Source: Escherichia phage UP30. Taken from it: a stretch of 49,834 nucleotides of DNA. The notes below the pieces were generated by a model that worked only from the letters and a program-made list of their open reading frames with translations, searched no databases and was not told the DNA's origin. Positions 6,686-42,150 of the stretch are shown piece by piece (the stretch's first letter is position 1; every line of letters begins with the position of its first letter). Position numbers and translations under genes: made by a program. The DNA lies in the sequence record OX638287; one strand, 5' to 3'.

Positions 6686-7258
6686 ATGAAAACAGCTATC
6701 ATTTTAAACGGCGCGCCGGGCGCTGGTAAGGACACTATCGGCGCAATCCTGGCTGACATTTACGATCACGTAGCTTTGCGCAGCTTCAAAGAGCCGATGT
6801 TTGAGATTGCTCGGGCAATACTTGGTGAAACTAACTACGAGTATTTCATGTTCTTGTATGAGGACCGTCGATACAAAGAAGAGCCAGCATCTATCCTGAA
6901 CGGTAAAAGCCCACGCCAGTTTATGATCTGGATTAGCGAAGAGGTAATCAAGCCACAGTTCGGCAATCGCTTCTTCGGTATGCGAGCGGAAAGTAAGGTG
7001 AAAGAGTCGTACTCCCTTTCGGTATTTACTGACGGTGGATTCAAAGATGAGATCTTGCAAATGATTGAAGGCGATATCCAGGTAAAGCTATGTCGAATCC
7101 ATCGCAACGGTTGCAACTTCGATAATGACAGTCGCGATTATATCTACCTGGATGATATGATCGGGGTCAACGGTTATCAGGAATGTGATTTCTTCTCTGT
7201 TGAGGGTCATCCTGAAATTACCGCTCAGCACATAGCCGCCACATTCATCAATAAATAG
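6686..7258 (+). CDS. P-loop kinase, dNMP-kinase-like (190 aa)
   Basis: N-terminal GAPGAGKDT Walker A of the GKDT type seen in phage dNMP kinases. Confidence 0.5.
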   Translation: MKTAIILNGAPGAGKDTIGAILADIYDHVALRSFKEPMFEIARAILGETNYEYFMFLYEDRRYKEEPASILNGKSPRQFMIWISEEVIKPQFGNRFFGMRAESKVKESYSLSVFTDGGFKDEILQMIEGDIQVKLCRIHRNGCNFDNDSRDYIYLDDMIGVNGYQECDFFSVEGHPEITAQHIAATFINK

Positions 7259-36077: not shown

Positions 36078-36132
36078 CGCGTAGAAGGATGTTACCCCGC
36101 TACGCGTCGTTTGTTTTAACTAAAAATGCTAT
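36078..36132 (-). promoter_or_regulatory. dyad box plus downstream hairpin/U-run upstream of primase
   Basis: Box 36114-36132 (minus sense tagcatttttagttaaaac); stem acgcgtag/ctacgcgt 36078-36110. Confidence 0.45.
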
Positions 36133-36568
36133 TGGTCGTTCCGATATCTTCCTTCTTCACCACTCGCATAAACTTCTTGTTCTTGCATCGCTTCTCAAGG
36201 CACTTGCCGTTACCGTCAAACTTGAGGTCGAATCGCAACCATGCCGCGCGGTATCCTTTACACCCCTGGCGACGGTAAGCGCGATGTGCAGCTTCAGCAC
36301 CTTGCCACGAAATCATATTGCGCTCTTTCCAGCCTTGCACGGTCTGATTACTAACTTTCAGAGCCTTTGCGCAGGCCGCCGGGCCACCATAATATTCGAT
36401 AAGAGCATCAAGTCGCGCTCGCAGTCCGGCGCGTGTTTCTTCTTTATGGATATAGAATCCGCAGCGTTGGCGAGGCTTTTTATCTTTACCGCGTCGGGTT
36501 CCATTGTTACCATTGATGTGACGTTTATCGATTTCACCAGTTGACTCGGCAATTCGTTGCATATTCAT
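36116..36568 (-). CDS. DNA-binding protein with Cro-like HTH and possible N-terminal HNH-like motif
   Basis: ACAKALKVSNQTVQGW helix-turn-helix; RHINGNNG resembles an HNH core; AGGAG RBS. Confidence 0.45.
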   Translation of the reverse strand: MNMQRIAESTGEIDKRHINGNNGTRRGKDKKPRQRCGFYIHKEETRAGLRARLDALIEYYGGPAACAKALKVSNQTVQGWKERNMISWQGAEAAHRAYRRQGCKGYRAAWLRFDLKFDGNGKCLEKRCKNKKFMRVVKKEDIGTTNSIFS

Positions 36569-40648: not shown

Positions 40649-40880
40649 TGCTGACGACTACCAGACAATATGGATCGGGAAAAAGCAGGTCAAGCAAATC
40701 CCCTTCTCTGATTGGTTGCCTCCTGACTTCGTTAACGTGCTTTGCACTATCGGGAACGATCAGGAATTGCACATTGGATATTATTCGCCAGGAAGAAACA
40801 GAATGATGCTTGAGGTTGACGGAAAGCTGGTTGAGTTCAAATCATCAGATCTAGGTTTCTGGTTAAAGGCTGTAGCGTGA
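40479..40880 (+). CDS. hypothetical protein (133 aa), N-terminal part uncertain
   Basis: Track ORF; C-terminal half looks protein-like, N-terminal overlaps 40376-40648. Confidence 0.35.
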   Translation: MLALFQTARFHLWKICREKCIEYQLLHRLSFTVKKERELNENEKQQKTSSLPGLNINADDYQTIWIGKKQVKQIPFSDWLPPDFVNVLCTIGNDQELHIGYYSPGRNRMMLEVDGKLVEFKSSDLGFWLKAVA

Positions 40881-40958
40881 AACTTTATTTTGCTGTAGTA
40901 TTAACACCGCTAATTTCATTTTCAGTAATGTATTTCATTATCATGTAAGGGTTAAAAT

Positions 40959-42110
40959 ATGTCACAAGCTAAAATCACTACCGAGCAACTAATCGAAGAG
41001 CGCATGAACGGCCTAACGCTTCGCGAGATCGCGGAAAAGTACGGTATGCATATCCGCACGGTTGAAGCGCGTCACGCCAAACTTGCAAAAGAAGGCCACT
41101 TTCACGGTAACGAGCATGTTGCTAAAAACGTTCCAGAAGGCTTCATGGTTAAAGGTACATCAACGATGATTCGAGGTGATGGGACCGAAGTGGTCCGCTG
41201 GGTTAAGACAGATCAGGATCGTGAGAAGATTGCCGCAATGATGGAAGCGGCTCGTATTGCATTCTGCGAAGACCTGCCGCGAGCAAAGCCAACCGAGCTA
41301 CTCACCTCGCAAGGACTTACAACCGCGATCGGTAAGCTGGCGCTCTATCCGGTATTCGACCTTCACATCGGCGCGCTTGCTCACAAGCATGAGTGCGGAG
41401 AGAACTACTCTACCGACGTAGCTGAAAAAGTGCTGGGCGACTTCTTCAATTATGCGATCGATATCGCGCCAAATGCAGAGAAAGCCGTTCTGTTAATCGG
41501 CGGTGACTTCCTTCACTCTGACGGCCTTGACGCTGTAACCCCGGCAAGCGGTCACGTTCTGGATCAGGATTCACGATACGCTAAGTTGGTGCATGTAGCG
41601 ATTCGATCGGTGCGACGAGCTATCGACAAAATGCTGACGAAACACAAAGAAGTCGAAGTCCAGGTCATTGAAGGAAACCACGACCAATCAGGAATGATTT
41701 GGCTGCGCGCTGCAATGGCTGCATACTATGAAGACGAGCCGCGAGTATTCGTTGACGTGAGTCCTATGATTCTGCATAAGACTCGCTGGGGCAATACCTT
41801 GCTGGGATACACTCACGGTCACACGATGAAAAAGGCCGACATTCGACTTGCAGCAATGGCGGCAGACTTCCGCGCAGACTTCGGTGAAAGCAAATACGTG
41901 TACACGCACAGCGGACACTGGCATCATCAGACAATCACTGAACACTCGTTAGGAATTGATGAGGTTCACGGGCAGTTAGGAGCGAAGGATGCATACGCCG
42001 CGCGAGGCGGGTGGCGCTCATATCGCCAAGCGGCGGTAATCGTTTACGACAAGCAATTTGGTGAGATAGGTCGATTCATCTATCGTCCAGAAATGACAGG
42101 ATCGCACTAA
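40959..42110 (+). CDS. calcineurin-like metallophosphoesterase with N-terminal HTH
   Basis: DLH, GDFLHSDG, EGNHD, GHT, GHWHH motifs; LTLREIAEKYGMHIRTVEARH helix-turn-helix. Confidence 0.65.
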   Translation: MSQAKITTEQLIEERMNGLTLREIAEKYGMHIRTVEARHAKLAKEGHFHGNEHVAKNVPEGFMVKGTSTMIRGDGTEVVRWVKTDQDREKIAAMMEAARIAFCEDLPRAKPTELLTSQGLTTAIGKLALYPVFDLHIGALAHKHECGENYSTDVAEKVLGDFFNYAIDIAPNAEKAVLLIGGDFLHSDGLDAVTPASGHVLDQDSRYAKLVHVAIRSVRRAIDKMLTKHKEVEVQVIEGNHDQSGMIWLRAAMAAYYEDEPRVFVDVSPMILHKTRWGNTLLGYTHGHTMKKADIRLAAMAADFRADFGESKYVYTHSGHWHHQTITEHSLGIDEVHGQLGAKDAYAARGGWRSYRQAAVIVYDKQFGEIGRFIYRPEMTGSH

Positions 42111-42150
42111 TTGCTAAAAACGCCCGAAGGGATTCGGGCATAGTAACCAC
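42104..42150 (+). promoter_or_regulatory. promoter module
   Basis: gcactaattgctaaaaac; gcccgaagggattcgggc then CATAGT. Confidence 0.5.

Follow-up and report, generated by a model that had tools for sequence, protein, structure and literature searches.

Gene and genomic setting

The window analysed here, that is, the whole 49,834-nucleotide stretch of Escherichia phage UP30 DNA in record OX638287, is the complete genome of a virulent T1-like siphophage, and the open reading frame (ORF) under study (Table 1) is a complete gene encoding a product of 383 amino acids. The PHROG 704 "DNA repair exonuclease" profile covers residues 4-380 of this product (E 2.8e-156), which shares 99% identity with gp30 of Escherichia phage EF3-1 and 72% identity with phage T1 gp16 (ST16, YP_003929.1). 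The position of the gene is syntenic with that of both, upstream of the holin, endolysin and spanin genes. The PHROG 704/T1 gp16 family is large, with some 2000 phage records and, at 50% identity, 4610 clusters, and most of its members display the same succession of a helix-turn-helix (HTH) domain, a hairpin and a metallophosphoesterase (MPE) domain; that the UP30 product is an HTH-MPE of this family can hardly be doubted. With a dN/dS of 0.012, the gene shows strong purifying selection; it belongs to the conserved core across the Drexlerviridae and numerous further phage groups and is not an accessory gene of patchy occurrence. The three HNH endonucleases of T1 are missing from the UP30 genome, in which gp16 is kept.

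This is, then, an ordinary, widely conserved and previously annotated T1-like phage gene that has been labelled by homology. It is a near-identical copy of a gene with hundreds of earlier public deposits, in which it is called "DNA repair exonuclease" or "recombination endonuclease subunit", and the labels "phosphoesterase" and "metallophosphoesterase" appear in records of Drexlerviridae, Jersey-like, Vibrio and Rhodobacter phages. A literature search on the T1 gp16 family, outside the scope of which the old T1 genetics papers lay, returned genome announcements only and no functional study.

Regarding the flanking elements, an unannotated ORF of 23 codons has a GTGA overlap with the stop codon of the ORF that precedes it and terminates 10 nt short of the MPE start, and it is therefore probably co-translated within the MPE operon. 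The transcription unit of the MPE gene probably starts at the nearest upstream copy of a promoter-like 16-mer, the 21 genomic copies of which are oriented with respect to strand like promoter elements and unlike HTH dimer sites. The T1 equivalent of the hairpin that follows the stop codon is annotated as a rho-independent terminator (RefSeq feature 41980-42007), whereas the UP30 hairpin was not called by the terminator scan because it lacks a T-run. The promoter and terminator scan around the gene yielded sites no more numerous than in shuffled sequence, no symmetric operator turned up in the vicinity of the gene, and Rfam gave no matches across the whole window. The direct repeat ATTTCATT(T/A)TCA was rejected as an operator, since its genome-wide frequency is not above chance and it sits within the small ORF.

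Table 1. Coordinates of the gene, its protein domains and motifs, and associated elements in the UP30 genome.
Feature	Coordinates	Strand	Remarks
dNMP kinase gene	6686..7258		
Regulator gene, PHROG 2856	36116..36568		separate, dedicated regulator
Promoter-like 16-mer GCACTAATTGCTAAAA	40116..40131	+	nearest copy upstream of the MPE gene
23-codon ORF	40877..40948	+	unannotated; hydrophobic peptide
HTH-MPE gene	40959..42110	+	complete
N-terminal HTH domain, residues 1-50	40959..41108	+	helices 8-16, 21-27, 32-44
Conserved beta-hairpin (residues 62-86, KGTSTM..DG....RWVKT) and helix 88-104	41139..41270	+	AF2 secondary structure
Variable linker, residues 105-122	41271..41324	+	coil, lower pLDDT (AF2); 33% identity to T1 gp16
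MPE catalytic core, residues 123-383	41325..42107	+	
Motif I, D134-L-H136	41358..41366	+	aligns with SDWHLG of T. maritima Mre11
Motif II, G182-D183-F-L-H186-S-D188-G	41502..41525	+	Mre11-type GDxxH; aligns with GDLLHS of T. maritima Mre11
Family-specific loop after motif II, residues 193-208, VTPxSGHxLDxDxRxxK	41535..41582	+	seen in two alignments
Motif III, G239-N240-H241-D242	41673..41684	+	aligns with GNHD of T. maritima Mre11
Motif IV, H286-G287-H288	41814..41822	+	
Motif V, G319-H320-W-H322-H323	41913..41927	+	
GC-rich hairpin GCCCGAA-GGGA-TTCGGGC	42112..42129	+	directly 3' of the stop codon

Domain architecture

The N-terminal domain adopts the tri-helical fold with a recognition helix that characterizes the LuxR/GerE, sigma-70 region 4 and resolvase class, and fold comparison matches it to DNA-bound resolvase and LuxR-type domains, thereby bearing out the helix-turn-helix segment that had been proposed at this end of the protein in an earlier note on this DNA. 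The domain was found in 126 of 149 family representatives and, judging from the modelled fold, it would be expected to bind DNA; no DNA target site for it was identified. Identity between the UP30 and T1 proteins amounts to 98% in the HTH, as opposed to about 68% in the remaining protein, suggesting that whatever partner the HTH has is strongly constrained. The catalytic part represents an allele other than that of T1, while the HTH is that of T1, and this places a mosaic junction near residue 70.

These features might also be expected of a bifunctional regulator resembling BirA or PutA, in which the HTH would be the principal functional part, regulating transcription from phage or host promoters, with the MPE domain in a sensory or secondary enzymatic role. 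The HTH class is one used by transcription factors, its near identity with that of T1 fits such a role and the copies of the 16-mer could serve as its target. Nonetheless, the promoter-like orientation of these copies, the lack of a symmetric operator near the gene, the presence of a dedicated regulator (PHROG 2856) and the invariance across the family of the catalytic residues discussed below, which argues for a working enzyme, make this explanation quite unlikely.

Between the HTH and the catalytic core lies a module composed of a β-hairpin and a helix that the earlier note had overlooked. Residues G75 and W81 of the hairpin are invariant or nearly so in the family alignments, and a search for a separate fold match to this connector found none.

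The C-terminal part of the protein forms the α/β-β/α sandwich of the MPE superfamily and contains the five motif blocks of its dinuclear metal site (DxH / GD / GNH(D/E) / H / GHxH). Across 72 diverse relatives, the motif residues either do not vary at all or are retained in 90% or more, H186 being conserved in at least 90% of them and H241 in all. The earlier description of the product as an MPE with all five calcineurin/Mre11-type motifs behind an N-terminal HTH is upheld: the five motifs and the three-helix HTH reside in the same 383-residue ORF. Beyond the canonical motifs, T194, P195, L201, D202 and R206 are invariant in a family-specific loop that is mostly coil in the model. Neither Pfam nor NCBIfam yielded anything above threshold with this protein; the match to PF00149 reached 14.9 bits (E 0.036) against a gathering cutoff of 21.5, and 15 of the 72 relatives match PF00149 at E <=0.01. 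The T1 gp16 family is a divergent MPE branch that Pfam misses.

Nuclease and phosphatase affinities

The nearest structural relatives of the core are the DNA nucleases PolD DP1, Mre11 and SbcD, and the top three structural neighbours of the protein are all nucleic-acid enzymes. Motifs I, II, III and V are colinear with those of T. maritima Mre11, and the protein possesses both the motif II histidine (GDLFH) and the motif III histidine of the Mre11/SbcD nucleases. From this alignment, a role in nuclease chemistry may be proposed for H186 and H241. The sister family PHROG 284 "exonuclease" was matched at E 1.8e-12. Similarity to Mre11/SbcD was not significant, the best match (T. maritima Mre11, E 0.2) being limited to the motifs; Pfam and NCBIfam gave no SbcD/Mre11 match, and matches to the PdeM / nuclease MPE family (TIGR04123) were weak and below the NCBIfam cutoff. 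Queried with the single protein, the PDB gave no sequence matches; queried with the family profile, it gave only sub-significant matches to HTH domains and to Mre11/nuclease MPEs.

The earlier note had left the choice between a targeted nuclease and a phosphatase open and had called for a comparison with SbcD/Mre11 and Ser/Thr phosphatases. The first half of that reading finds partial support in the Mre11-like motifs and the fold neighbours, even if the profile similarity to Mre11 falls short of significance. The phosphatase half, and with it the notion of a signalling phosphatase, was not borne out, as neither the PPP Ser/Thr phosphatase signatures (GDxVDRG and GNHE) nor a close fold match to these enzymes was found. 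The nin region of lambdoid phages includes a PPP phosphatase gene, and PPP-family enzymes such as lambda phosphatase and PP5 have the superfamily scaffold with its five motifs in common with the UP30 protein; even so, a DNA-tethered Ser/Thr (or Tyr) protein phosphatase comparable to lambda NinI seems highly improbable here.

Genomic context and candidate functions

The context of the family was analyzed in 77 bacterial (prophage) loci, located with 10 query sequences, by means of ORF calling, all-against-all BLAST clustering and PHROG annotation. No obligatory partner gene emerged among them, one tally giving no neighbour in more than 17 loci. A tally of 24/77 is given for endolysin, the commonest neighbour, whose adjacency is uninformative on substrate. 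No SbcC-like or conserved large ATPase neighbour was detected in the 77 loci, nor is an SbcC/Rad50 gene annotated in the T1 or EF3-1 genomes. Among the genes that recur near the prophage copies are those for a dNMP kinase (11 loci), a Dmp-like dNMP phosphatase (4 loci), a NinG/Rap junction endonuclease and a primase. The copies carried by Ruegeria and Rhodobacter phages adjoin thymidylate synthase, dCMP deaminase or ThyX, and the UP30 genome carries a dNMP kinase gene of its own. In T1-like phages the gene belongs to a plus-strand block that follows helicase, VRR-NUC and Dam, but its neighbourhood varies across the family, and in Jersey-like phages it is a cassette inside the tail module.

Some of these associations are compatible with an Mre11-style nuclease processing phage DNA, which would trim ends, hairpins or branched replication or recombination intermediates together with the RecE-like exonuclease, Erf, SSB, VRR-NUC and helicases, and would thereby form or resolve concatemers before headful packaging. 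The Mre11/SbcD/DP1-like fold and motifs, the T1-like gene block, the junction endonuclease and primase near prophage copies and the public labels all point in this direction. However, these labels rest solely on superfamily similarity, there is neither a Rad50/SbcC partner nor a capping domain, the phage already possesses a full RecE/Erf recombination set, and the gene has no link to recombination genes in Jersey-like, Vibrio and Rhodobacter phages. We regard phage DNA processing as a serious but rather unlikely explanation.

A third type of substrate would be small molecules, the enzyme acting in counter-defence or metabolism as a phosphodiesterase or phosphatase of cyclic (oligo)nucleotide immune signals, nucleotides or Ap4A-type compounds, with the HTH serving in autoregulation or localization. 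The status of the gene as a conserved core gene, the retention of the HTH fusion in most representatives, the Mre11-type histidine in motif II and the nucleic-acid substrates of the three best structural neighbours all argue against it. Likewise, PADLOC defence profiles gave no matches at E <=1, in agreement with a lack of similarity to defence families, and we consider this possibility distinctly unlikely.

The best overall explanation, to which we would assign a probability of roughly 0.4, is that the protein is an HTH-tethered, stand-alone DNA nuclease that breaks down host DNA. A DNA nuclease activity as such seems reasonably probable, and a specific role in host-DNA degradation and nucleotide salvage is proposed more tentatively. 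Under this explanation, the HTH would hold the enzyme on duplex DNA, and a two-metal site made up of D134, H136, D183, N240, H286, H320 and H322 would hydrolyse DNA phosphodiester bonds, H241 and H186 being the histidines that serve in catalysis or positioning. The enzyme would be Mn-dependent and would act without a Rad50/SbcC ATPase. During lytic growth it would break down DNA, most probably the host chromosome, contributing to host shut-off and releasing dNMPs to be re-phosphorylated by the phage dNMP kinase, in a role that would parallel that of the A1 metallophosphatase in phage T5. In favour of a link to host DNA and salvage are the dNMP kinase gene of UP30, the dNMP kinase and dNMP phosphatase near prophage copies, the nucleotide-metabolism genes beside the Ruegeria and Rhodobacter copies, and the retention of gp16 in a genome that lacks the HNH endonucleases of T1. 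Host DNA is reportedly degraded by T1, and T1 mutants impaired in this degradation are said to transduce more often. On the other hand, many relatives lie within integrated prophages having integrases, where a nuclease that destroys the host early on would have to be tightly controlled. T1-like escape mutants were sought in the Metis and PUA-Cal-HAD papers, which report only T-even denA escapers, and a Tn-seq preprint contained nothing on Drexlerviridae.

It is conceivable, if somewhat doubtful, that the T1 gp16 family represents the long-missing nuclease by which T1-like phages, and likewise the many other siphophages and prophages with a copy of the gene, degrade the host chromosome. If so, a single polypeptide would do the job of T5 A1 and A2, as an "HTH-guided demolition nuclease", and the HTH might direct or restrict cleavage, either through a specific motif or by telling host DNA from Dam/Dcm-methylated phage DNA. 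In that event, gp16 would also determine how often T1-like phages carry out generalized transduction, and it would give rise to the dNMP "danger signals" that Metis-type defences detect.

The importance of the gene lies only in what the T1 gp16 family does, the sequence itself being ordinary. Phage therapy and biocontrol make heavy use of T1-like (Drexlerviridae) and Jersey-like phages, and a conserved DNA-tethered nuclease in them would bear on host takeover and nucleotide recycling, on the frequency of host-DNA packaging, and hence the risk of transduction, and on the triggering of defences that sense genome degradation. Given that the family is large, subject to strong purifying selection and labelled by homology, one biochemical and genetic study would annotate many genomes, and it would test whether the combination of HTH and metallophosphoesterase is a general design of phage host-DNA nucleases, common to the T5 A1 family.

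Comparison with known systems

The UP30 protein differs in nothing essential from T1 gp16, with which it shares the full-length profile, the genome position and the HTH-hairpin-MPE order. Mre11/SbcD (PDB 3qg5, 7dog, 2q8u) possess a C-terminal capping domain and a Rad50/SbcC partner, whereas the UP30 protein has neither and carries the N-terminal HTH and hairpin module instead. The small subunit DP1 of PolD, an archaeal 3'-5' proofreading exonuclease (PDB 5ihe), is 12% identical to the UP30 protein, but it bears an OB domain and acts within a polymerase holoenzyme, and the T1-like phages T1 and EF3-1 have no polymerase of their own.

Bxb1 gp47 serves as a recombination directionality factor (RDF), and a non-catalytic or accessory role like that of Bxb1 gp47 / L5 gp54, in recombination directionality and replication, may be envisaged for the UP30 protein. 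Bxb1 gp47 is itself a phage MPE, its motifs III-V are colinear with those of the UP30 protein, and the PHROG 221 profile to which it belongs reaches about 110 residues N-terminal of the gp47 start, a hint that some relatives may likewise be built in two parts. Homology was nevertheless rejected at an hhalign probability of only 8.9%, and the catalytic residues, being invariant, speak for catalysis. The virulent lifestyle of T1-like phages, together with the lack of an annotated integrase in T1 and EF3-1, makes an RDF role impossible here, and an accessory role in general appears very unlikely. The MPEs of cluster A mycobacteriophages (Gp48, Bxb1 gp47 / L5 gp54) have the five motifs in about 255 amino acids and no HTH. 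One of them, Gp48 of mycobacteriophage A10ZJ24, has phosphodiesterase activity, damages host DNA and functions as a counter-defence enzyme (PMC12287305).

Host DNA degradation by T5 requires the A1 protein, a predicted metallophosphatase that has features of Mre11 and proofreading nucleases, and A1 is also sufficient for it (bioRxiv 10.64898/2026.04.02.716235). A1 is a pre-early protein of 556 amino acids (PHROG 1745), its partner is the DNA-binding protein A2, and its N-terminal half is unrelated to the UP30 protein. BLASTP aligned the motif III segment only, and hhalign probability was 17.6% with the single sequence and 21% between profiles; A1 was accordingly rejected as a family assignment, only the neighbourhood of motif III being detected, and kept as an analogy. 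As with Bxb1 gp47, the similarity is at the level of motifs, and the functional analogies are drawn without demonstrable close homology beneath them. Both A1 and the UP30 protein have an NHD..S.WL extension of motif III, and T5 pairs A1 with dNMP-handling enzymes. A1 itself has no detectable HTH, but some of its relatives (about 530 amino acids, 45-49% identity to A1) have at their N terminus an HTH that falls into the broad class of the UP30 one. The relation to T5 A1 is one of analogy in architecture and possibly in role, short of demonstrated orthology.

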